64,000 nt of DNA from a virus (taxonomy: Duplodnaviria > Heunggongvirae > Uroviricota > Caudoviricetes), in IMG/VR virus record IMGVR_UViG_3300028887_000068, positions 178,490 through 242,489 of that record; one strand, 5' to 3'. Shown piece after piece: positions 2,314-64,000 of the stretch. The notes beneath the pieces were generated by a model, which saw only the letters and a list, made by a program, of their open reading frames with translations, had not been told where the DNA came from and did no database searches. Positions within the stretch are counted from its first letter, which is position 1; every line of letters starts with the position of its first letter. The position numbers and the translations under genes were made by a program.

Positions 2314-2347
2314 AAATAGAGAGAGATCTTGCGATCTCTCTATTTTT
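2312..2347. terminator. Bidirectional intrinsic terminator between convergent genes
   Basis: agagat-cttgcg-atctct stem (GCAA loop on - strand) flanked by A and T tracts. Confidence 0.75.
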
Positions 2348-4154
2348 ACTGCTCTCCAACGAAGAAGTCATCATAGACACCTTCAACGACTCTCTCATAC
2401 GTGTCGATTTCTTGAAGCTTCTTACGAAGATTCTCGAACGACAGGATCGTAGAAAGATTCTTGGTGTTGATGCCCTCGCTCAATCTGAGAACAGTAATCG
2501 GGCCAGTATCTGGCAACGAGAAGTCTGGTTTGTTTCCATTGATATCTCTCAACAGTGCCGACAAGATCGTTTCTGCATGAACAGATACAATCGGAATCTC
2601 ACCATCAACGATATACTTGAGGAACGCATTTGCGATAGCCACATAGTTGTTACCGATTCCGTTATGGCTGTCGGTCTGAATCAAGCTAATGAGATTCATC
2701 AATGCTTCGTTAAGCTCAACACTCTGACGACGCAACGTAAACAGTTCTTCGCTGTCTTCGATGTTGATGTTATACTCATGCTTGTATACTTCGAGTTCCT
2801 CTTTCACTCGTCCTGTCGGATACAGTGGTACAGGAAGATCGAATGTTTCCTGTGATTTCTTGTTCTTCACAGTCAGTCTGTTGACCACCAAGTTTCCTTC
2901 ATCGTCTTCACCAAGGTCTTCTCTTGCGATAGAGAACTTGCGAAGATCCTTTCCGGAAAGCAGCACATTCTTAGATTCTTCAAACAGTTCCGTGAATCCA
3001 GCTGGCCACTCGATGGGCTTAGTCTTTGCCATGAGAAGATGCTTTGCAGACAGAAGTCTCTGTGTCAAGCATGATGTAAGCAACAACACACCCACAGACC
3101 CAACACGGTAGTGTTCTTCGTTTGCCATATCGAACAAGTCGCCATAGCATCTTCTACAGATACCTGTCTTGCATGAACAAGTGATCGGGCTATAAATCTT
3201 AATCTTGCCTTTCATTCGTTCAAACTGTTCGGCACTTCCGTCAATCTTCTCTCCTGATTCCGTATATCTTCCTATCAGGCGAGTAAATGTCTTCATGTTC
3301 GGAACATCCACTTCCAACGGATGCTTCGTGTCACAGCACTCTTCATCTGACAATACAATGTCAGATGTGAGCAACAGCAACTTTCTTGCAAGGTATCCTG
3401 AGCGTCTCACTTGATGGTGAGAGATAACCAGTGCCTTTCTTGCACCAGTTGCAGATACCCAAAAGTCTTCAATACTTCTAAGTCCACGGATAAAGCTCGT
3501 GTTCACTGGGTGTTCGCAGATATTGTCATCGAGGTCTGGCTTCAGACCTACACACGCCACCATCTGAGTCAGCTGTTTCTTGTTAACAGCTTCTCCTCGG
3601 ATCAATTCTCTATACGGAGAATCTGGGGCGGAGAATACTCTACCGACTTCTTCAGTCAGCTTGGACATATCTTCTGACATTTCATCCAAGGTCTTGTGCT
3701 CATCGAGTTTGAAGTCGATGAGTTTCTTGGCTTCAGGATTACTCTTATACATCTTTGCAAGACTGTATAAGTCAACGGTAATACCGTGGATCTCATTTGT
3801 CTTTGTGGACAGAATGAGAAGATCCTGAATCACCTCAAAGATTTTCTCTTTCAGATTGTCTACTCCGGCTTCTCTTGCCATGTTCGCTAAGCGTCTGATA
3901 TACGCATCAACGTCCTTGGCACTATCACCGTCAAACAAATCGCTCTCATCGAACTCCATGTCCAAACCCTTGGACACAGCTCTCAATGCCGTAAGAGAGA
4001 TGATGGCTCGACCGACTGTCGTATCCTTGGTCAAAATCTTGATCGGAGTAGACTTTCGTTCTGCAATCGTTCCCTCTCCGTTAAAGAGGAATTCCCTGAG
4101 ACCAGTGTAGCTCTTTTCAATGCTTTCACTTGTCAGCGAAGTAATGCTATTCAT
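2346..4154 (-). CDS. Multisubunit RNA polymerase beta' subunit, C-terminal half (probably non-virion RNAP)
   Basis: Bridge helix GARKAL..RSGYLARKL, Zn site CCDT..SPITC..GICRRCYG, trigger loop TQRLLSAKH, C-terminal HAETIL/ILSFEN; lacks the DxDGD motif, so the gene is split. Confidence 0.9.
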   Translation of the reverse strand: MNSITSLTSESIEKSYTGLREFLFNGEGTIAERKSTPIKILTKDTTVGRAIISLTALRAVSKGLDMEFDESDLFDGDSAKDVDAYIRRLANMAREAGVDNLKEKIFEVIQDLLILSTKTNEIHGITVDLYSLAKMYKSNPEAKKLIDFKLDEHKTLDEMSEDMSKLTEEVGRVFSAPDSPYRELIRGEAVNKKQLTQMVACVGLKPDLDDNICEHPVNTSFIRGLRSIEDFWVSATGARKALVISHHQVRRSGYLARKLLLLTSDIVLSDEECCDTKHPLEVDVPNMKTFTRLIGRYTESGEKIDGSAEQFERMKGKIKIYSPITCSCKTGICRRCYGDLFDMANEEHYRVGSVGVLLLTSCLTQRLLSAKHLLMAKTKPIEWPAGFTELFEESKNVLLSGKDLRKFSIAREDLGEDDEGNLVVNRLTVKNKKSQETFDLPVPLYPTGRVKEELEVYKHEYNINIEDSEELFTLRRQSVELNEALMNLISLIQTDSHNGIGNNYVAIANAFLKYIVDGEIPIVSVHAETILSALLRDINGNKPDFSLPDTGPITVLRLSEGINTKNLSTILSFENLRKKLQEIDTYERVVEGVYDDFFVGEQ

Positions 4155-13434: not shown

Positions 13435-13983
13435 TTAGTCTAGATGTTTTGGAGCAGGAATCTCACCTTCGAATTCGAAGTCAATCGGGACAATCTGTCT
13501 CTTGCCTTCAAATGTTTCGATGATCTTACAACGCTCAAATTTATGAACAACATCCTTCGTTGCATTATACAGCTCCTGTAAAGCCATAGCCCAGATAGCA
13601 AAACTTCCATTAGGCTTATTCATCCTGTAGACGTCTCGCTCAAGTTCGTCGGGTTCTTGATGCCAGCATACTAAGCTCTTCATCTTTCCACGGACTTCAT
13701 CCGTTATAGATCTGAACATAATGTAAGCATGGTTGAATTCCGGGCCGTGGCCTGAACAACAGTACTGTGTTTCTACCCCTTCAATGCTGTTCAAACACAG
13801 AATGGGCAAGAGAATAGCATCATCAATATTATGGTATCCTTCCATAAACAGCTTTGCGCGGTCATAGACATCAGGCCACTGTACGATGTATTTCTTCTCT
13901 CTGAAGTTAACAAAGGCTTGGGATGTAGAGGTGCTGTTAGCACCATTACACACCAAGTCAAACGCTAATTCGTCTGGCGTCAT
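13435..13983 (-). CDS. Hypothetical protein with a TQYCCSGH motif
   Basis: 182 aa, ATGA-coupled to the RNAP beta gene. Confidence 0.65.
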   Translation of the reverse strand: MTPDELAFDLVCNGANSTSTSQAFVNFREKKYIVQWPDVYDRAKLFMEGYHNIDDAILLPILCLNSIEGVETQYCCSGHGPEFNHAYIMFRSITDEVRGKMKSLVCWHQEPDELERDVYRMNKPNGSFAIWAMALQELYNATKDVVHKFERCKIIETFEGKRQIVPIDFEFEGEIPAPKHLD

Positions 13984-15872
13984 TTCTTGATCCTTAATCC
14001 GAGTCCGCTGAGATAACCGTTAAGCATACTCTTCGGAACATTGTTGCCTTTCCTTTCGAGAATGATCTCTTCGCCTTCTTTCTTTTTGATGAGAGCTTGT
14101 GCAAGCGCTAATCTATCTTCAGAAGACTGAGAAGAGAACGACAACAAGTCAGAAATGTCTTTGAGGTTTCCAGAGAACATCAGGTTGGAGGTTTCTTGTT
14201 CACCAAGTCTAATCGGGGTCTTGCTAAGAATATCAGTACTCTTCGCACTCTTACTCTTGTTCGGCACACCCTTGGAACTAAGTAAGCCGACACATCTTGC
14301 AGACTGCTTGCCAGACGGTTCTTGTTTCAGACGCATAAAGTACGCCTTGGCAAACGTCAACGGACGGTCGATACCCTTGAACTTGGTCTGTTGAATTCCG
14401 AGTTCTTCAACCAGGTCAGCGTATTCTTCGAAGCTGATGTTATCAAAGAATGGCGGCATGTGAATCGGGAAGCCCTTGTCGTACATCTCATTGATGAACG
14501 TCGTCAGAGCTGTTTCATCCAACGACTCGATGTACTTATCAAAGGACTCCTTCTGGTCATAGTTCAGAGCAAGATAACATTCACGAATACCTTCGATCTT
14601 CCCATCGAGTTTATCGTTCATGTGTCTCTTTCTGAAGTTGTCCGCTATTTCGTTGATTGCAAGTTCAAACAACGCACCGGGGTTCAATCGACCGATGATA
14701 CCGAGAGGCGACATACAAACTTCTGCATGGTCTCCATCAATGGTTTCCGGCATCTGGTCATCGGGCAGGATCTTAGAAATCACGCCCTTAGAGCCATAGC
14801 GATTTGTAATCTTACAACCTTCTTCAAGCGGTCTCTGATGACAGACTTTCACGTTCAGATACAAGAAGTCAAATTCATTCTTAGCTATCCACGGCTTCTT
14901 TTCGCTATGCGGGCCGTTCACCGACTCCGTATACCTAGCTATCGCATACGATGCATCCGGTGTAAGCAAACCCGTTTGCTTATAGGGCCATAAAGTTTCA
15001 ATGATTTCCAACCAGTATCTTTCCTGATTTTCCAAGATATCTCTAATCTGCTTCGACCACGGTTCGTTCAGAACTTCGGACGCAACGTTAGAGTATACCG
15101 TAATGTCTTCCACATATCCTACTCCACTGAAGACTGCGTCTGATGCGATAATCTTCTGTGCTGTAGCATCTGTAAATCTTGCAAACGAAGAACGCTTTTC
15201 GTATCTACGTCTTGCACAAATGATACCATTACTAATCTCTTGGAAGATATCCGGGAGACACTTGTAGTCATTGCTGTCGCCGTAAAGATTAAGTAACACG
15301 TCGTTCGAGTTGATAAGAACGCCGTATTCCATGATCTCAGTGAAAGCCATCTTTTGCGCAGCTGTTTCCGATACCAAAATGGCGTCTTCGATGGTTCCAT
15401 CCTTATGGTTATAGAAGATCGTTTTCAGATTCTTTCCATAAGCCAAGTTTAAGTGGTCGTCATATGCCGAAGCCGAGCTAATCACTTCCCCTGCTTCAAT
15501 TTCCATTCCTTCCGTAATGTTCTCGAAATCGGGAACACGGTTAAGATAACCGAAGTGCTCGGTGAGTCTCTTCGAGCTTGTGATTTCTTTAAAGTCAATC
15601 TTTTTCGTCTCTTGATCTTCTAGTATCAAGGCATAAGTAGAGTCGTTCTTTTTGATAGCCTTGACTACCTTCTGCTTATGGTCATATCGAAGAATGGACG
15701 AAGAAACTTCTCCGACCTGATTCTCGAAATTCGTAAAGAGCAGAGGCGGTTCCGGATCATCCAATACAAGAGCCTGATTTAGATGGTTGCAGACCATGTT
15801 AAGTCTTGGGCCATCGATCTTGTTCGCATTGGGAACCAGCAGTTCACTTTCGAGAAAGCTGTGATCTGCCAT
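13980..15872 (-). CDS. Multisubunit RNA polymerase beta subunit, C-terminal half (probably non-virion RNAP)
   Basis: PRLNMVCNHLNQAL, EDAILVSE, GCKITNRYGSKGVIS, IGRLNPG, RLKQEP..SAR, IRLGEQE. Confidence 0.92.
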   Translation of the reverse strand: MADHSFLESELLVPNANKIDGPRLNMVCNHLNQALVLDDPEPPLLFTNFENQVGEVSSSILRYDHKQKVVKAIKKNDSTYALILEDQETKKIDFKEITSSKRLTEHFGYLNRVPDFENITEGMEIEAGEVISSASAYDDHLNLAYGKNLKTIFYNHKDGTIEDAILVSETAAQKMAFTEIMEYGVLINSNDVLLNLYGDSNDYKCLPDIFQEISNGIICARRRYEKRSSFARFTDATAQKIIASDAVFSGVGYVEDITVYSNVASEVLNEPWSKQIRDILENQERYWLEIIETLWPYKQTGLLTPDASYAIARYTESVNGPHSEKKPWIAKNEFDFLYLNVKVCHQRPLEEGCKITNRYGSKGVISKILPDDQMPETIDGDHAEVCMSPLGIIGRLNPGALFELAINEIADNFRKRHMNDKLDGKIEGIRECYLALNYDQKESFDKYIESLDETALTTFINEMYDKGFPIHMPPFFDNISFEEYADLVEELGIQQTKFKGIDRPLTFAKAYFMRLKQEPSGKQSARCVGLLSSKGVPNKSKSAKSTDILSKTPIRLGEQETSNLMFSGNLKDISDLLSFSSQSSEDRLALAQALIKKKEGEEIILERKGNNVPKSMLNGYLSGLGLRIKK

Positions 15873-49088: not shown

Positions 49089-49835
49089 TTAGCTCTCTAT
49101 CTCTACGACTTCAATATCCTTGCCACGGAATTTAGCCTTGGGAATGATACCGGACGAGTCAATCACGGCTTTCTCGTCGGCTTCAATACCGAGCAGATCC
49201 TTATCCATAAGAACTGTTCCGGCGTCGCTGCTGGCTGTAAGGTCAATGACAAAGATCTCGCCATCTTTATTGGCAACAATCTCGTACTCATCGGTAGTAA
49301 CTGGGATGTCTACAAGTTCTTCAATACCTTCGCTCTCGGGGTCTGCTTCAGGTTCAGGCGGAACATAGGCTTCCTGTTTAAAGTCAGGGGCTTCATTTTC
49401 TGCCTGGGATACCTTGGCAACTTCCTTAGACTTCTCTAGCTGTTCCTTTGCTTGGGCCTCAAAGTCTTCCTCATCAAGCACTTCGGCTTCTATGGTTTGC
49501 TTAGGACGATACCCAACGCCATTCTGCGATAGGATATCGACAAGCTCGCCGACATTGAAACTTCCGCCACCGCCATCGAGAAGCTGCTTTTGAAGTTCTT
49601 GCTTGTACTTCTTTTCCTTCAGGGTCATGATACCCTTAATAGCAGATATCTTGGCATTCTTGATAGCGATAAGATTACCAGTCTGAAGATGGGTGAATGC
49701 TAGACTTCCTCTAGACCTAGAGTTTATCACATTCTGAAGCATAGCCTTGGAGTTGTTATACAGAGCGTCCAACTCGGCTGCTTCATTCTTCAATGCGTTA
49801 ATCTCTTCATCAAAATTGGATCCTTGAACTTCCAT
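49089..49835 (-). CDS. Hypothetical protein (coiled-coil N-terminus, acidic)
   Basis: 248-aa ORF. Confidence 0.7.
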   Translation of the reverse strand: MEVQGSNFDEEINALKNEAAELDALYNNSKAMLQNVINSRSRGSLAFTHLQTGNLIAIKNAKISAIKGIMTLKEKKYKQELQKQLLDGGGGSFNVGELVDILSQNGVGYRPKQTIEAEVLDEEDFEAQAKEQLEKSKEVAKVSQAENEAPDFKQEAYVPPEPEADPESEGIEELVDIPVTTDEYEIVANKDGEIFVIDLTASSDAGTVLMDKDLLGIEADEKAVIDSSGIIPKAKFRGKDIEVVEIES

Positions 49836-57438: not shown

Positions 57439-59331
57439 ATGTCCGTTTCTTACATGCAACCTTCTCAGAAGATGGCTGCTTGCAATGACTCGTTCACCTC
57501 CACTCTTCGCGAAGTGGCTGAAGAATTCAGCGCAAGCAATGTTAACATCTTCAACGCCGATGACTTCAAAGACGTCTTGGGCGATGATGGCCTCTTTGGT
57601 CGTTATTCTGAAATGCTCGCTGCTGGCCTTGATGAAGCCGAAGCAGAACAGTTCAAGACTATTGCACAGTCTTCTCGTATTGAAGCTCTCGAAGCTGCCT
57701 CCCTTGGTACAGTTGCTCCGATGTCCTTCCTCCAGACCCCGATGCTCCGTAAGTCTTGGGCTCGTACGGCTATGAACAAGGCTATCCCGACGGAAGCTGT
57801 TGAAAAGCCGAAGTTCACCATTAACTACCTCCATCCGTGGCTCAAGGATCTTCAGGGCAACAAGCACTATGTGCCGGAAAACCTCATGGACATCGATACC
57901 GCTGTCTCTAAGGTTCGCCTTGCTGAAGATGTGAAGTTCTATTTCGGCGCAGGTAACTGCTTCTCCATGAATCTCCTCACTGGTCTTGATGTTGACGAAT
58001 TCGGCAACGACATTGCTAATTCTAAGAACTACAAGACTCCGACTGGCGGTACTGCGGATTCTACTCCGAAGTATGATGCAGCTATCGGCATGGTCAACCA
58101 TGAAAATGACGAAGTTGACGTGAACGTTTCTGTCATTACGGCTGGCTTCGATTCTTCGAAATATGTTGCCAATGCTGGTGTTCTCGTTAACGGTGTTTCG
58201 AGAAAGCTCTTGGCTCCGGCTTCCGGAACAGTCGCTCTTACTCTTAACGGCACCGCTCTCACCGATGCTGATCTCGTCAAGAACTGCAAGATCGAATGCG
58301 GCACCCGTCGTGGTGGCATCAAGGGTGTTGTGACCCTCGACGTTGAAGTTGATGCAGCTTGCATTGATTCTGGTGCAACTGGTACCGTCATCGTGACGCT
58401 CGTTGACGCTATCTACGGTGACGTTGATGTGAAGACTGGTCGTCTCACTCTCATGCAGCAGCATGGCAACCTCAAGTTTGTCATGATCAAGGCATTCGTG
58501 TCCTCTGTCATGAACAACAGCACTCTTCAGGTTGGCTTCGATATCCGCGACAAGGAAATCCACATCGGTACTGGTGAACACCTTGAAGCTCCGGTTCCGA
58601 ACGAATACATCACGGACTTGCTCCGTATGTTTACGCTCAACGGTGTTTCCAAGCTCGTGGAAATCCTCTCCAGCTTCCTCGCTCAGAAGATGGACTTGGA
58701 TGGCGTTAACTTCATGGATGAAGTTATTGATGACGCTATCGAACAGGCTCCGAATGGCGACTTCGTTCGTGCATTCTCTGCAAAGCCGGTGGGTAACTAC
58801 CAGCTGAACCCGGCAGAATGGCCCAAGATGCTTACCAAGGTGCTCGACCACCTCTCCATGAGCATCATCAACATGTACCATTACGAACAGGGTTACTTCG
58901 TTGCGGCTTGCAACCCGCTCGATGCAGCTCTCATTCCGGACATCAACTGGGTGTTCCACGGTAATGGTCAGTCCGAATATGCTGGCGTGAATGCTAACAT
59001 TGCCTTCGGTCAGTATCAGGGTATCAACTCTTGGAAGGTTGTCTCCTCTCCGAACATCCCGCAGGGCGCTATCCGCGTTCTCTTCATCCCGACTGTTCAG
59101 GATCAGATGACTTACAAGCTCTATACCTACAGCTTCATGCTCGAACAGGCTGGCTCTGGCTACAACAGCCCGAAGAACACTTACGTTCCGACCATCCTCA
59201 CCTCTCGTCGTTACGCCTATGTTGACGTGATGCCGGGCGCAGGTCGTGTGACGATCACGAACAACAGTGCAAACTTCTACAGTTTTGCAGGCGTGTCGCC
59301 TTATTTGCCGACTGAAACGTTCATCCACTAA
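57439..59331 (+). CDS. Major capsid protein (T4 gp23-like, with propeptide)
   Basis: 630 aa, extreme codon bias, C-terminal PTILTSRRYA, acidic leader ending ALE/A, late promoter 57325-57336, strong terminator. Confidence 0.8.
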   Translation: MSVSYMQPSQKMAACNDSFTSTLREVAEEFSASNVNIFNADDFKDVLGDDGLFGRYSEMLAAGLDEAEAEQFKTIAQSSRIEALEAASLGTVAPMSFLQTPMLRKSWARTAMNKAIPTEAVEKPKFTINYLHPWLKDLQGNKHYVPENLMDIDTAVSKVRLAEDVKFYFGAGNCFSMNLLTGLDVDEFGNDIANSKNYKTPTGGTADSTPKYDAAIGMVNHENDEVDVNVSVITAGFDSSKYVANAGVLVNGVSRKLLAPASGTVALTLNGTALTDADLVKNCKIECGTRRGGIKGVVTLDVEVDAACIDSGATGTVIVTLVDAIYGDVDVKTGRLTLMQQHGNLKFVMIKAFVSSVMNNSTLQVGFDIRDKEIHIGTGEHLEAPVPNEYITDLLRMFTLNGVSKLVEILSSFLAQKMDLDGVNFMDEVIDDAIEQAPNGDFVRAFSAKPVGNYQLNPAEWPKMLTKVLDHLSMSIINMYHYEQGYFVAACNPLDAALIPDINWVFHGNGQSEYAGVNANIAFGQYQGINSWKVVSSPNIPQGAIRVLFIPTVQDQMTYKLYTYSFMLEQAGSGYNSPKNTYVPTILTSRRYAYVDVMPGAGRVTITNNSANFYSFAGVSPYLPTETFIH

Positions 59332-59351: not shown

Positions 59352-59905
59352 GGTCTAGACTTCGGTCTAGACCATTTTTATAACTCGCTAATGAAAGGAG
59401 ATTCTTCTATGAACACAACAGCTAATGAAAGTGTTATTTCCGAAATTTCTGACCTCTGGGAGCGTTACGAGGACTACATGGCTCCTAAGCTTAAGGAAGG
59501 TACAGATTCTATCATTGAAGAGCTTAAGAAAGCAAAGACAGCACCTGAAATTAATGCTATTGATGACCGTATCGATAAAGCCATCAATCAATGCACGAAG
59601 CTCTCTAATGCTCATGCCTATACTCTCGAACACCTAATCGTTGATATTAAGCAATGCCTCATTTTCCTTATCCCAGTCTTATGGCTTCCAAGTATCGTTG
59701 CCGCTATAATCAGTGACTTCTACAAGCATGGCCCGTTACTTAAAGAGAATCTGGACAAGTCGCTCTATTTCCGTATCGCTAAAACGGCTAAAGAGTGTCT
59801 TCCCAGACTCAAAAAAGCTAAGGCTGAAGCTACGGCTAAACTCGCCAAGGCTAGGGCACAAAAATAAAATAACCTTTACGGTCTAGACTTCGGTCTAGAC
59901 CATTT
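59352..59905. repeat. Two identical 26-bp UUCG terminator hairpins (59352-59377 and 59880-59905)
   Basis: ggtctagacttcggtctagaccattt occurs twice, flanking one gene. Confidence 0.9.
59409..59867 (+). CDS. Putative virion protein with a hydrophobic segment; start revised to MNTTANES
   Basis: Promoter AACTCGCTAATG at 59382-59393, SD aaggag. Confidence 0.6.
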   Translation: MNTTANESVISEISDLWERYEDYMAPKLKEGTDSIIEELKKAKTAPEINAIDDRIDKAINQCTKLSNAHAYTLEHLIVDIKQCLIFLIPVLWLPSIVAAIISDFYKHGPLLKENLDKSLYFRIAKTAKECLPRLKKAKAEATAKLAKARAQK

Positions 59906-59965
59906 CTTATACAAAAAAGAACAGGTATCTTGCGATGCCTGTTCTCTTCTTGTTTCTTGTTCTCG

Positions 59966-60259
59966 TTACTTCAGGGTCACACGCAACCACTTGAAAGAGA
60001 ATCCTTCGGGAAGGGTAGTAGAACCTTCCGGAAGTCTTCCTCCAGTGAGTTGTGCTACGATGACAGTATCGTCCTTGTTGAGCTTGACATTTTTGCGAAC
60101 GCAAGCAACGCCAAGGACATTGGCTGTATCATTATGACCGACGGCGCTATCAAAAGAACTAAGTTCTTCCTTGCTTGGTTCAGGGATCTCAGTGATCTCG
60201 ACCATTGCAGGGAATTCCCCAATCATTTGAAGGCTGAAAGCATTGCAGAGAAAAGTCAT
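59966..60259 (-). CDS. AcrIII-1/DUF1874-family cA4 ring nuclease (type III anti-CRISPR)
   Basis: FLCNAFSLQM..FP, SAVGH..TA, R..VKL..DD.V.VAQL..RLPEG match the DUF1874 pattern, including the catalytic GH. Confidence 0.82.
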   Translation of the reverse strand: MTFLCNAFSLQMIGEFPAMVEITEIPEPSKEELSSFDSAVGHNDTANVLGVACVRKNVKLNKDDTVIVAQLTGGRLPEGSTTLPEGFSFKWLRVTLK

Positions 60260-60314
60260 GTTTTTATCTCCTATAAGAGTGGTTAAGCTGGTCTACGGGC
60301 CAGAACGTTTATGA

Positions 60315-60764
60315 CTAAAAATCAAAGATAAGCTTGCCAAATCTCAGTTGAGCTTCCTCAACTGTGATTAATTCGTATCCTCTGCCATTACCCAAGCACA
60401 GTTCCTTTATTAGATCATCGGAACTGTTAATCTTAGCCGCTTCTTCCTCCTTTAGAAAGATATCAGTATGATTAATTTCGAGCTTATGCTCAGCTTGGTT
60501 TGTGCGTCTTTCGACGAATGTTCTGCAGAAGTTTACTCGAATATACGACACATCCTTGTCGAGGAAGTCGTATGCGGCGAGCTCTCTTTCGTTGGGCTTG
60601 CGAGGATTATAGAACACGCAACTAAGAGCGAGCGATACCGCCCACTTGTAACTGTACATGTCATCATACTCCTCTCCCTCCTTGAAGAGGGCAAGACCGA
60701 CGCCTCTTTTCTTTTCGTATTCATGATAGATTTTTTCAAGCTTTTCTACAATTTCTACTGTCAT
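60315..60764 (-). CDS. Hypothetical protein, paralog A
   Basis: KRGVGLALF..YKWAVSL..ELAAYDFL.KDVSY..CRTFVER..HKLEIN..NGRGYE..EAQLR.GKLIF. Confidence 0.75.
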   Translation of the reverse strand: MTVEIVEKLEKIYHEYEKKRGVGLALFKEGEEYDDMYSYKWAVSLALSCVFYNPRKPNERELAAYDFLDKDVSYIRVNFCRTFVERRTNQAEHKLEINHTDIFLKEEEAAKINSSDDLIKELCLGNGRGYELITVEEAQLRFGKLIFDF

Positions 60765-60872
60765 TTTTATCTCCTGTTTAATTATGGCACTTTTTAATAT
60801 ACCATCGGATCACAGAAATTTACAAAAAAGAAAGGGCATCTTGCGATACCCATTCTTTTGAACATATCTAGA

Positions 60873-61343
60873 TTAGCAAGCGAAGATGAGCTTTCCAATT
60901 CGCAATTGCGCTTCATCTGCGGTTAGTATTTCATACTCTCTGCCATTGCAAGAGCATAAAGCCTTTACAAGCTTTTCAATACTGTCAATCTCTTTGGCTT
61001 CTTTATCTGTCAAGAAAAGACAAACAGTGTTTATTTCAACCTTATGAATTGGTTGATTTGTCTGTCTTTCAACAAACGTTCTGCAAAGTGTTATCTTGAC
61101 ATAAGAAGTATCTTTGCATAAAAATGGATATGCCGCGAGTTCTCCTTCCGTTGGTTTAGAGACATTTTGCAGTATACTGCTAGATAGAGACATCGCCACT
61201 GCCCATCTGTAGTTGCGTATACCGTCATGTTCCTCATTCTCGGCGAAGAGCGCAAGACCAGTGCCACGTTTATTAATGAATTCGCGGATAAGGTCTGCTA
61301 GTTTAGACACAGTTTCACTTGCTGTTTTCTTGTTCATTGTCAT
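60873..61343 (-). CDS. Hypothetical protein, paralog B
   Basis: Colinear, full-length similarity to 60315-60764. Confidence 0.75.
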   Translation of the reverse strand: MTMNKKTASETVSKLADLIREFINKRGTGLALFAENEEHDGIRNYRWAVAMSLSSSILQNVSKPTEGELAAYPFLCKDTSYVKITLCRTFVERQTNQPIHKVEINTVCLFLTDKEAKEIDSIEKLVKALCSCNGREYEILTADEAQLRIGKLIFAC

Positions 61344-61395
61344 TTTTCTCCTTTAAAAAGAGAGTATGCTTTCGCATACCCTCCTATGAAATAGG

Positions 61396-61923
61396 CTAGA
61401 GAACGACACATTCACTAACATTGGTGACATGGCGTTTCCTGCCGTTGGGTAGATGACAGTATCCGCTAACGTGATACTGGTCATCGATTTTACCCACAAA
61501 TTTATAACCGTCTTTCTCGGCTACATATTCATCGCATCCCTTCTGAAAGAAGAAATTTTCTCTACAGCCATAATCAGCCGTGGAGATTAATTCAATCAGA
61601 TTATCTGCCGAGAAGCTGTTCTCACGAATTTTTGCAAACCCGTAAGTTAATTCTACCTTCCCGTTAGATAGGACTTCAACCTTGTCTACATGACGGCATA
61701 CAATACCGTCATAAGACTTGGTCTTTCGCATCGGTACGCCATTGATGCGAATATTGAGGGTCTTATATACCACGCCCTCTTCCTGACGACAGCTCATGCT
61801 ATCAGCGGTAATATTGGGTACCACCTCCAAGACTTCATGATCGCAGGATCTAAAGTCGTAGCATCCTTCTCCTGCCTGAAGTAATGCCGCCATAGCGAGA
61901 ATGAATAAAAGAATTTTCTTCAT
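61396..61923 (-). CDS. Secreted Cys-rich protein
   Basis: Signal peptide MKKILLFILAMAALLQA; 8 Cys in the mature region. Confidence 0.65.
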   Translation of the reverse strand: MKKILLFILAMAALLQAGEGCYDFRSCDHEVLEVVPNITADSMSCRQEEGVVYKTLNIRINGVPMRKTKSYDGIVCRHVDKVEVLSNGKVELTYGFAKIRENSFSADNLIELISTADYGCRENFFFQKGCDEYVAEKDGYKFVGKIDDQYHVSGYCHLPNGRKRHVTNVSECVVL

Positions 61924-62103
61924 CCTGTTGTTTTTGATGCTAGTAACGGAATTGTCACTAGGATGTGTCTCCTAATTATCACACCATCGTTTAATATAAT
62001 GTTAGACCCATTCTAAAATACGCTGCAATTTTTTTCTGTAAGTTTAAATAAAATAAAAAAAAAATAAAATATAAAAACTAAGCCTTAACTATAGGAGAAT
62101 CAA

Positions 62104-62418
62104 ATGTTACTAGAACTCAAAGCATCCCAAGCCAGACTAATCTCAGATACCAGCTTCTACAGATATGGAAAGACTCCGCATAGAGCTACTGTTCTTACAA
62201 TGGCTATCGCTTTCATTAGCGCAAAGATTTTCGAGCATGCTTCTAAGAAAGAGAAAGTATACTCTATTGAGCTGCCTAGGCTTTACATCTTAGAAGAAAA
62301 TCTCGAAAAGGAAGAACGTGAAGAAATGGTAAAAGAGCTTAAAGCATACTTTACAACCCTCGGTTACATGGTTACCGAAGATACAAATGGTTTTACATAT
62401 TTCCACTGGGAATTGTAG
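62104..62418 (+). CDS. Hypothetical protein
   Basis: 104 aa, SD aggag, downstream terminator. Confidence 0.65.
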   Translation: MLLELKASQARLISDTSFYRYGKTPHRATVLTMAIAFISAKIFEHASKKEKVYSIELPRLYILEENLEKEEREEMVKELKAYFTTLGYMVTEDTNGFTYFHWEL

Positions 62419-62468: not shown

Positions 62469-62894
62469 TTATTCTGCAATGAGATCGTGGTCTGTGTTCT
62501 CCGATAGAACATTGGGCAGATCTCTCGTAACTTTGTACAAGAAGTTGAATCTCTTGCTGTACTCGAACAAGTCATCATCCGATGGGATATCATCCGGATT
62601 ATCCCCACGGTCTTTTAATCTTGCTTTGCTCTTAGGCGTAGTACAAAAGAGAATCACAAACATCGTATCACTAGCAGCTTTTACCTTTTCTCTGAACGCT
62701 TCGGCAAATGCCTGAAGCCTGTCAGGATTGTTAGCATCTTCTAACGAGATATAATTTTCGTCACTTACCTGGTCTGTGTACAATCCTTCGTCAATGATCG
62801 TACAATCAGGAAACATTTTCTTTAACATTTCAGCTCGGAAGGTCTTTCCAGTACCGGGAATACCGTCCAACTCTATCTTCTTAATTTGTTCCAT
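62469..62894 (-). CDS. Small P-loop NTPase/nucleotide kinase-like protein
   Basis: IELDGIPGTGKT, IIDEG, VILF..P..S.ARL..RG. Confidence 0.7.
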   Translation of the reverse strand: MEQIKKIELDGIPGTGKTFRAEMLKKMFPDCTIIDEGLYTDQVSDENYISLEDANNPDRLQAFAEAFREKVKAASDTMFVILFCTTPKSKARLKDRGDNPDDIPSDDDLFEYSKRFNFLYKVTRDLPNVLSENTDHDLIAE

Positions 62895-62981: not shown

Positions 62982-63596
62982 ATGGCTGAAGAAAAAGTAG
63001 AAATCACTCTAGACAACATTGACAAAATCGTTGATGACCGTATTAACGAATGCTATGCAAAAGCTGAAGCTGGATCAGCCTTTGTTGCCAAACAGAGAGA
63101 AGAAATAGCAAAACGTTCTTTTGCAGTGGAGATCCCGAAGGAAGAACCCAAAGAAGAACCTAAGCCCAAACCGAAGGTTGTAGAACAGCCGAAGGTGGTT
63201 AATAGACGCAGCTATGAAGAGATATTTAAGAAGATCGCTACTAGCTTTGGCTTTAAAGTCCGTAAAGAAGAAGACGGCTTAGTCTCTGCTTACGACGATA
63301 CATTCTACTTTATAGCAGGCGATGGTTCTAAACGAAAGCTTGAACGAATTGCCGCACAACTTGGACATAACGGTCTAACCACTTGCTGTACCAGATTCGT
63401 CTCCGATCCAGAAGGTAAGATGATTATAGACAGATGTCCGAGACCAGTCGGCAATACATTGTTCGATCTTGACAAAGAGGAAGAAGCCTTAAAGGAAACT
63501 TTCGCAAAGCTCACTCTATCTCGTAAGAACGCTCTCTTAGGGTTTAAAGCTCCTAGAGAACGGAGTTCGCATGGTAGAATGGGCTGGTCTGGCTAA
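62982..63596 (+). CDS. Hypothetical protein
   Basis: 204 aa, SD aggaggt, TATATTAATCTATG promoter at 62934-62947. Confidence 0.7.
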   Translation: MAEEKVEITLDNIDKIVDDRINECYAKAEAGSAFVAKQREEIAKRSFAVEIPKEEPKEEPKPKPKVVEQPKVVNRRSYEEIFKKIATSFGFKVRKEEDGLVSAYDDTFYFIAGDGSKRKLERIAAQLGHNGLTTCCTRFVSDPEGKMIIDRCPRPVGNTLFDLDKEEEALKETFAKLTLSRKNALLGFKAPRERSSHGRMGWSG

Positions 63597-63690: not shown

Positions 63691-64000
63691 ATGGAACTTA
63701 CTCCAATGCTTATTGTAGGACTGGCAGTTGCTGCGCTCGTCTTGCTTCTTTTAATTATCTTCCTGGCTGGATATGTTAAGGCTCCGCCTAACACGGCTTT
63801 TGTCATCTCTGGTATCCGCAAGGAACCGCGATTCCTCGTTGGTCGTGCTGGCTTGTGCATCCCGTTCCTTGAACAGAAAAACTCTCTTACTTTGTCTGTT
63901 GTTACGATCGACGTTAATACAACGGAAGCTATTCCCACAGCCGACTGTATTAAGGTTCAGGTTGACGCTAATGTGAACGTCCAAGTTGACACAGAAGAAG
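63691..64000 (+). CDS. Flotillin/SPFH-domain membrane protein (truncated by the window edge; not in the ORF track)
   Basis: TM helix then GYVKAPPNTAFVISG..VGRAGLCIPFLEQ..L.LS..TIDV.T..IPTAD.I.V.VDA. Confidence 0.85.
   Translation, partial: MELTPMLIVGLAVAALVLLLLIIFLAGYVKAPPNTAFVISGIRKEPRFLVGRAGLCIPFLEQKNSLTLSVVTIDVNTTEAIPTADCIKVQVDANVNVQVDTEE

Follow-up and report, generated by a model that had tools for sequence, protein, structure and literature searches.

The 97-amino acid protein encoded on the minus strand at positions 59966–60259 is a confirmed member of the known DUF1874/AcrIII-1 family, and it is probably (about 0.72) an active homodimeric AcrIII-1 ring nuclease expressed in a two-gene unit from an early-class promoter. 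The window, which is the whole stretch of DNA analysed here, comprises the last 64 kb (64,000 nucleotides) of an IMG/VR phage record with a CheckV completeness of 94%. At 242,489 bp the complete record has the size of a jumbo phage genome, as the initial annotation had assumed. The family of the protein, its residue conservation and fold, the anatomy of the transcription unit, the motif statistics, and the conservation in related phages were all computed directly. The gene and its ribosome-binding site are as follows.

59966..60259, minus strand: acrIII-1 homologue of the DUF1874/PF08960 ring nuclease family, 97 aa, with an ATG start and a TAA stop
60268..60272, minus strand: Shine-Dalgarno sequence AGGAG, 8 nt 5' of the acrIII-1 ATG, as read from the sequence

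An HMM search against DUF1874, which the initial annotation had proposed as a check, returned a match of Pfam PF08960 (STIV_B116-like, formerly DUF1874) to residues 4–80 with an E-value of 6.1e-5, although the score of 23.5 bits lies slightly below the gathering score of 26 bits in the Pfam copy used. Precomputed annotation of a large protein collection assigns PF08960.17 to the 97-aa protein, which has 1,362 homologues in that collection, the best 120 of them all annotated as PF08960. PHROG 5063 also matches (E 1.1e-12). Among PDB sequences, phmmer found only STIV B116 (7e-6), SIRV1 gp29 (2.8e-5), and the H47A variant of gp29, and a profile built from the subfamily recovered SIRV1 gp29 (1.1e-12), STIV B116 (1.2e-10), and AFV3-109 (4.6e-9). 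Among 50,697 phage records, the closest hit is the DUF1874 protein of Thermoanaerobacterium phage THSA-485A, identical at 51.5% of positions across 98% of the query (E 5e-25); the same search matched the query to no cultured AR9-like phage. The PADLOC model for Csx16, a distant structural relative of Crn2, matches the protein weakly (E 1.2e-4), and this family was not adopted because the evidence for DUF1874 is far stronger. A second six-frame match to PF08960 at about 49185–49325 (E 0.01) falls in a 248-aa open reading frame (49089–49835, minus strand) and probably arose by chance; it was rejected because the 248-aa frame, scanned as a protein, has no Pfam match. The Pfam, PHROG, PDB-sequence, profile, and fold evidence and the catalytic residues thus agree with the AcrIII-1/DUF1874 assignment that had been made from the letters.

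The NAFS, GH, R, and RLPEG motifs pointed out in the initial annotation are present as N6-A-F-S9, G41-H42, R55, and R75-L-P-E-G79, and they are invariant or nearly so in the family alignments. In an alignment of 15 sequences, comprising the 97-aa protein, the THSA-485A DUF1874 protein, STIV B116, a Methanobacteriales virus protein, and eleven metagenomic homologues, residues N6, F8, S9, M12, G41, H42, R55, R75, L76, and G79 are invariant and E78 is nearly so. An alignment of 52 sequences of the subfamily adds D44, T45, Q70, P77, and E78, among others, to the invariant positions. HMMER alignments place SIRV1 gp29 residues N8, S11, H47, T50, R66, Q81, R85, and E88 at N6, S9, H42, T45, R55, Q70, R75, and E78, respectively, of the 97-aa protein. 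H42 is accordingly the predicted catalytic residue, and N6, S9, T45, R55, Q70, R75, and E78 are predicted contacts to cyclic tetra-adenylate (cA4); E88 of gp29, the counterpart of E78, we take to be a functional residue. From the set of gp29 cA4 contacts (N8, S11, N13, S49, T50, R66, Q81, and R85), six are kept in our protein as N6, S9, T45, R55, Q70, and R75, and two are changed (N13 to Q11 and S49 to D44). D44 is invariant throughout the bacterial and phage subfamily, the functional THSA-485A protein included, and H42 is invariant in both the 15- and the 52-sequence alignments. In SIRV1 gp29 the equivalent H47 is the absolutely conserved general acid, with the H47A variant losing more than 2,500-fold in activity, and R85 is the arginine that locks the closed dimer (10.1101/778746).

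An AlphaFold2 monomer model of the protein, built with 52 sequences, has a mean pLDDT of 95 and a pTM of 0.84. Comparison of this model with the PDB using Foldseek gave matches at a probability of 1.00 (E up to 7e-3) exclusively to AcrIII-1/Crn2 structures, namely 6SCF, 2X4I, 2J85, 2J6B, and the Csx1-Crn2 fusion 8Y7G/8Y7F, and the next, unrelated match has an E-value near 1.

By analogy with the characterized enzymes, the 97-aa homodimer would bind cA4 at the dimer interface and cleave it to linear A2>P, with H42 serving as the general acid. Type III CRISPR (Cas10) produces cA4 as a second messenger when phage RNA is sensed, and an enzyme that removes it would keep cA4-activated effectors switched off. 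It is from the computed features that we infer catalysis, specificity for cA4, early timing, and a cA4-signalling type III system in the natural host. Versions of Crn2 are known from the type III loci of cells and as fusions with Csx1, and the phage protein could by that precedent be a Crn2-like regulator of a cA4-dependent effector carried by the phage itself, or else a catalytically dead or sponge-like form. Both ideas are very improbable, as H42 and all key residues are intact and the phage has neither a CRISPR-like repeat array nor a match to the Csx1 HEPN domain. A search of the phage for SAVED domains gave no match, and its control was likewise silent.

The phage that carries the gene is distantly AR9/PBS1-like by sequence comparison, with split multisubunit RNA polymerases. 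Three genes of the window place it there.

57439..59331, plus strand: major capsid protein, 31–34% identical to those of Bacillus AR9/PBS1, Listeria LPJP1, Staphylococcus jumbo phages, and Yersinia phiR1-37
13980..15872, minus strand: homologue of the C-terminal beta subunit of the AR9 non-virion RNA polymerase (nvRNAP)
2346..4154, minus strand: homologue of the C-terminal beta' subunit of the AR9 nvRNAP

The two ends of the record share the 16-nt sequence GTTGACACAGAAGAAG (window 63985–64000 equals genome 1–16), so the record, although listed as linear, is probably a circular or permuted assembly. An SPFH/Band-7 gene begins at window position 63691 and runs on at the genome start. The family of the nuclear shell protein chimallin (phrog_4795) had no match in the carrier or in two related metagenomic phages, G001 and G006, that are described below; the phiKZ control scored an E-value of 1.8e-232, and very divergent shells could escape such a search. 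The published classification, in which AR9-like phages do not belong to the nucleus-forming Chimalliviridae (PMC13282480), agrees with this result.

On the minus strand, the unit that contains acrIII-1 runs from a GTATATTAAA-type motif through an orphan gene of 149 aa and then acrIII-1 to a strong terminator. Its elements and those of the preceding unit are listed in the direction of transcription.

61985..61998, minus strand: early-type motif TATATTAAACGATG upstream of the 175-aa gene
61396..61923, minus strand: 175-aa orphan with a signal-peptide-like N terminus, first gene of the preceding unit
60873..61343, minus strand: 156-aa paralogue of the 149-aa orphan (54% identity), in the preceding unit
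60834..60851, minus strand: terminator of the upstream unit, a GCAA-tetraloop hairpin with a T-run (dG -14.5 kcal/mol for 60856–60822)
60788..60802, minus strand: predicted early (virion-RNAP type) promoter core GTATATTAAAAAGTG, with the ATG of the 149-aa gene 38 nt downstream of its first base
60315..60764, minus strand: 149-aa orphan gene, apparently co-transcribed 5' of acrIII-1
59911..59945, minus strand: terminator after acrIII-1, a 13-pair GCAA-loop hairpin (59945–59918) followed by TTTTTTGT (dG -19.0 kcal/mol for 59950–59905)

The TATATT motif that had been reported at 60788–60801 is present and reads TATATTAAAAAGTG on the minus strand (60801–60788). The terminator at 60834..60851 is predicted to insulate the acr unit from the preceding one, and the 149-aa gene is separated from acrIII-1 by a spacer of 55 nt that contains AGGAG. 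The terminator-like intergenic hairpins of this region (59880–59901, 59918–59945, 60834–60851, and about 61355–61380) all carry stable tetraloops (GCAA, GAAA, or UUCG). The first of these is a perfect palindrome, GGTCTAGAC-TTCG-GTCTAGACC, of which a second copy lies upstream of 59391. In our reading of the locus, acrIII-1 would be the second gene of a two-gene unit ending at an intrinsic terminator, and the injected virion RNA polymerase would probably transcribe this unit from the early-class promoter; the enzyme would therefore be expected at the start of infection.

The motif upstream of the unit was assigned to the early promoter class by analogy with AR9, whose early promoter consensus, AAATATATATTAT-N6-G, is recognized by the injected virion RNAP with no need for newly made protein (PMC5312081). 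According to a review, all jumbo phages that encode RNA polymerases have such an AT-rich motif, about 10 nt long, ahead of their early operons (PMC7598289). In the carrier genome, GTATATTA[AT] occurs in 18 copies, compared with 2.9 ± 1.7 expected from shuffled sequences, and most copies have a TG about 5 nt after the motif. An open reading frame start led by a Shine-Dalgarno sequence lies 18–170 nt downstream on the same strand at 23 of 32 GTATAT[TA]A[AT] sites (72%), against 25% for random positions. Both nvRNAP subunit genes of the window also have this class of motif in front of them. These genes must be expressed ahead of the late genes, and the beta'-C gene of AR9 bears an annotated early promoter. 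The motif of the carrier resembles the AR9 early promoter in its AT-rich core of about 10 nt with TATATTA, in the conserved G or TG a few nucleotides downstream, in its over-representation, and in its position ahead of nvRNAP genes and of small orphans. It differs from it in the core, which here is (T/A)GTATAT(T/A)A(A/T)A, and in the spacing of the TG, which follows at about 5 nt rather than the 6 nt of AR9. A second, late-class motif, AACT-N4-A(A/T)TG, occurs 67 times in the genome against 26 expected and is found upstream of the capsid gene (57325, plus strand) and of the 59391–59867 gene (59382, plus strand). On the minus strand, this late-class motif (AACT-N4-AWTG) is absent upstream of the acr unit. 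Enrichment, placement before open reading frames, and association with the nvRNAP genes all show the motif behaving like the early promoter class of this phage, in keeping with the early operon proposed in the initial annotation, and early expression of the acr unit is, on the analogy with AR9, fairly likely.

An ordinary host sigma-70/sigma-A promoter read by the host RNA polymerase could also make expression early, in a host-dependent manner, and a consensus scan does list TTGTAA-18 nt-TATATT with an upstream TG at 60825–60796. A T-rich/GYRAA element about 18 nt upstream is, moreover, common to several of the motif sites. This explanation is possible but doubtful, since the region shows no enrichment of sigma-70-like sites (12 versus 9.0 ± 2.8 expected), and in many copies a T-run abuts the motif with no correctly spaced -35 element. 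The conserved core with its downstream TG instead resembles the virion RNAP consensus of AR9 and of G006, and it is the injected virion RNAP, not the host enzyme, that performs early transcription of the AR9 type.

The timing of expression matters for the role of the protein. The homologue gp37 of SIRV2 is a middle/late protein, and for that reason it has no anti-CRISPR action in native infection (Martinez-Alvarez et al., preprint 10.1101/2023.01.10.523387); family membership alone is therefore no proof of an Acr role. SIRV2 gp37 binds the lysine methyltransferase SiL_1451 (10.1101/2023.01.10.523387), and by extension the phage protein could have the ring nuclease fold and yet serve mainly in another natural role, either binding a host protein or clearing cA4-like nucleotides of another system. 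Such a role is unlikely here. The argument from gp37 is one of middle/late timing, whereas the only promoter-like element at the acr unit is of the early class, so that the promoter evidence, by its analogy with AR9, points in the opposite direction; in addition, the catalytic and cA4-binding residues are strongly conserved in the subfamily and the methyltransferase partner is limited to Crenarchaeota. An anti-CRISPR ring nuclease produced early remains the reading that we favor.

Homologues of acrIII-1 were found at 128 or more viral loci in IMG/VR. The closest, with 75% identity, belongs to a sister phage (G001, 235 kb) whose capsid protein is 81% identical to that of the carrier and in which the acrIII-1 homologue also adjoins the capsid gene. 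This homologue is preceded by a T-run/CGTAAAATTCTATG...ATTATATTATTAATGG element with the same architecture as in the 242-kb phage. In place of the orphan gene the sister phage has about 500 nt of largely non-coding sequence (L006 3510–4000) between the early-type motif and the acrIII-1 homologue; as it holds only one 30-aa open reading frame, this stretch may serve as a long leader or form a structured RNA. G006 (306 kb) is a distant AR9-like phage, its RNAP beta and capsid proteins each being about 31% identical to those of the carrier, and its acrIII-1 homologue (50% identity) lies about 90 nt downstream of TATATATTATAATTGTG. The G006 record (L051) contains 50 exact copies of TATATATTAT-N6-G, the one ahead of the acrIII-1 homologue among them, mostly as ...TATAATTGTG or ...ATG, against 4 for the reversed control, and its early consensus is therefore almost identical to that of AR9. 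Another copy of the AR9-type motif lies about 90 nt upstream of the nvRNAP beta homologue of G006. Two other AR9-like metagenomic jumbo phages thus have acrIII-1 homologues behind a similar motif.

Homologues of acrIII-1 are also present in unrelated large phages of 183–353 kb. In a tree of 122 homologues, which was made from short proteins by a quick method only and is poorly resolved, the carrier (G000) and G001 group together, and G006, the pair G003 and G004, G005, and G002 fall elsewhere. This distribution in the sequence tree suggests that large phages may have gained acrIII-1 several times.

The genes next to acrIII-1 had been put forward as anti-defence candidates. The 149-aa and 156-aa genes are tandem paralogues, and a search of 1.84 billion representative proteins with the 149-aa protein returned only itself and this paralogue. 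The 149-aa orphan is absent from the sister phage and from all other acr loci compared, and the 156-aa paralogue gene is likewise absent from the sister phage. Pfam, PHROGs, and PADLOC gave nothing for the genes at 60315–60764, 60873–61343, 61396–61923, 62104–62418, 62982–63596, and 59391–59867. An AlphaFold2 model of the 149-aa protein, made from two sequences only, shows an alpha/beta fold with a pLDDT of 84; it has no Foldseek match in the PDB at E ≤ 0.001, a best VIA Z of 4.2, and no usable look-alike in the Atlas. With no homologue, family, or fold match for these orphans, the proposal made for them found no backing beyond their position. The region from 59.9 to 63.6 kb is made up of short early-motif units on both strands that encode orphans, and it looks like an early accessory or counter-defence region, an anti-defence role being speculative. 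A 141-aa P-loop protein encoded at 62469–62894 (minus strand), behind an early-type motif, matches AAA_18 with an E-value of 2.7e-6, just under the cut-off, and may be a small nucleotide kinase. A more far-reaching proposal, which we consider improbable, is that the 149- and 156-aa paralogues form a new anti-defence family whose action would complement that of the ring nuclease, for instance through a block of the cA4-independent branch of the type III response or of a second signalling defence, and, more broadly, that AR9-like phages without a nucleus systematically put acrIII-1 under virion-RNAP early promoters.

A scan of genome contigs placed close cellular homologues of the protein in Treponema, Bacteroidota, Bacillota, Saccharibacteria, and other phyla. 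Most belong to metagenome-assembled genomes from the gut or rumen, and this spread over many gut and rumen phyla is not host-informative. The phage encodes one tRNA, a tRNA-Met. Strong use of Shine-Dalgarno sequences and the kinship to AR9 hint at a Bacillota-like host, and a host with cA4-based type III signalling is a reasonable deduction from the presence of acrIII-1. The initial annotation had supported this deduction with the effectiveness of type III CRISPR against jumbo phages, a premise that derives from work on nucleus-forming phages; the carrier is AR9-like with no chimallin detected, and the premise therefore does not transfer to it automatically.

Three aspects of the locus give it wider interest. 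The published arguments on jumbo phages and type III immunity concern nucleus-forming phages, and the carrier is an AR9-like jumbo phage with RNA polymerases of its own and no detectable nuclear shell. In three related metagenomic phages a predicted early promoter of the virion-RNAP type precedes the gene, an arrangement relevant to the criticism in the literature that the expression of some viral ring nucleases comes too late for an anti-CRISPR function. Finally, acrIII-1 marks a small, orphan-rich early accessory region that is a reasonable place to seek new counter-defence genes.

AcrIII-1 has been reported in 36 of 28,114 cultured phage genomes (10.1101/2024.09.24.614671), and a literature search found no published report of it in a jumbo phage. 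When the 97-aa protein is compared with the archaeal viral enzymes SIRV1 gp29, STIV B116, and AFV3-109 (6SCF, 2X4I, 2J85, and 2J6B), the folds agree (Foldseek probability 1.0, TM 0.63–0.73), and the catalytic His and the Arg, Asn, Ser, and Gln contacts to cA4 are kept. Sequence identity to the archaeal viral proteins is about 23–28% in structural and multiple alignments and reaches about 36–40% in local tblastn segments. The phage protein is shorter (97 versus 109–116 aa), has no counterpart of their 6-residue loop in front of R55, and closes with a beta-strand where the archaeal proteins have a helix. The THSA-485A protein is built in the same way. It shares its domain with Crn2 and Csx1-Crn2, as the match to 8Y7G indicates, but unlike these it is encoded by a stand-alone phage gene, in a phage with no CRISPR locus or detected effector. 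Among the closest characterized relatives is AcrIII-1 of THSA-485A (Tsac_2833), which resembles it in being short (102 aa) and in having the GGRLPEGSTTLP loop and the C-terminal beta-strand. In a plasmid assay, the THSA-485A DUF1874 gene abolished type III immunity that depends on cA4 and left cA6-dependent immunity in place (preprint 10.1101/778746). That gene comes from a 42-kb phage of a thermophilic Firmicute, in contrast to the 242-kb AR9-like jumbo phage described here, in which the gene is paired with an orphan gene and lies behind an early motif of the phage-RNAP type. AcrIII-1 is a known and well-characterized family, and the enzyme itself is therefore not new; it is this setting that merits keeping.
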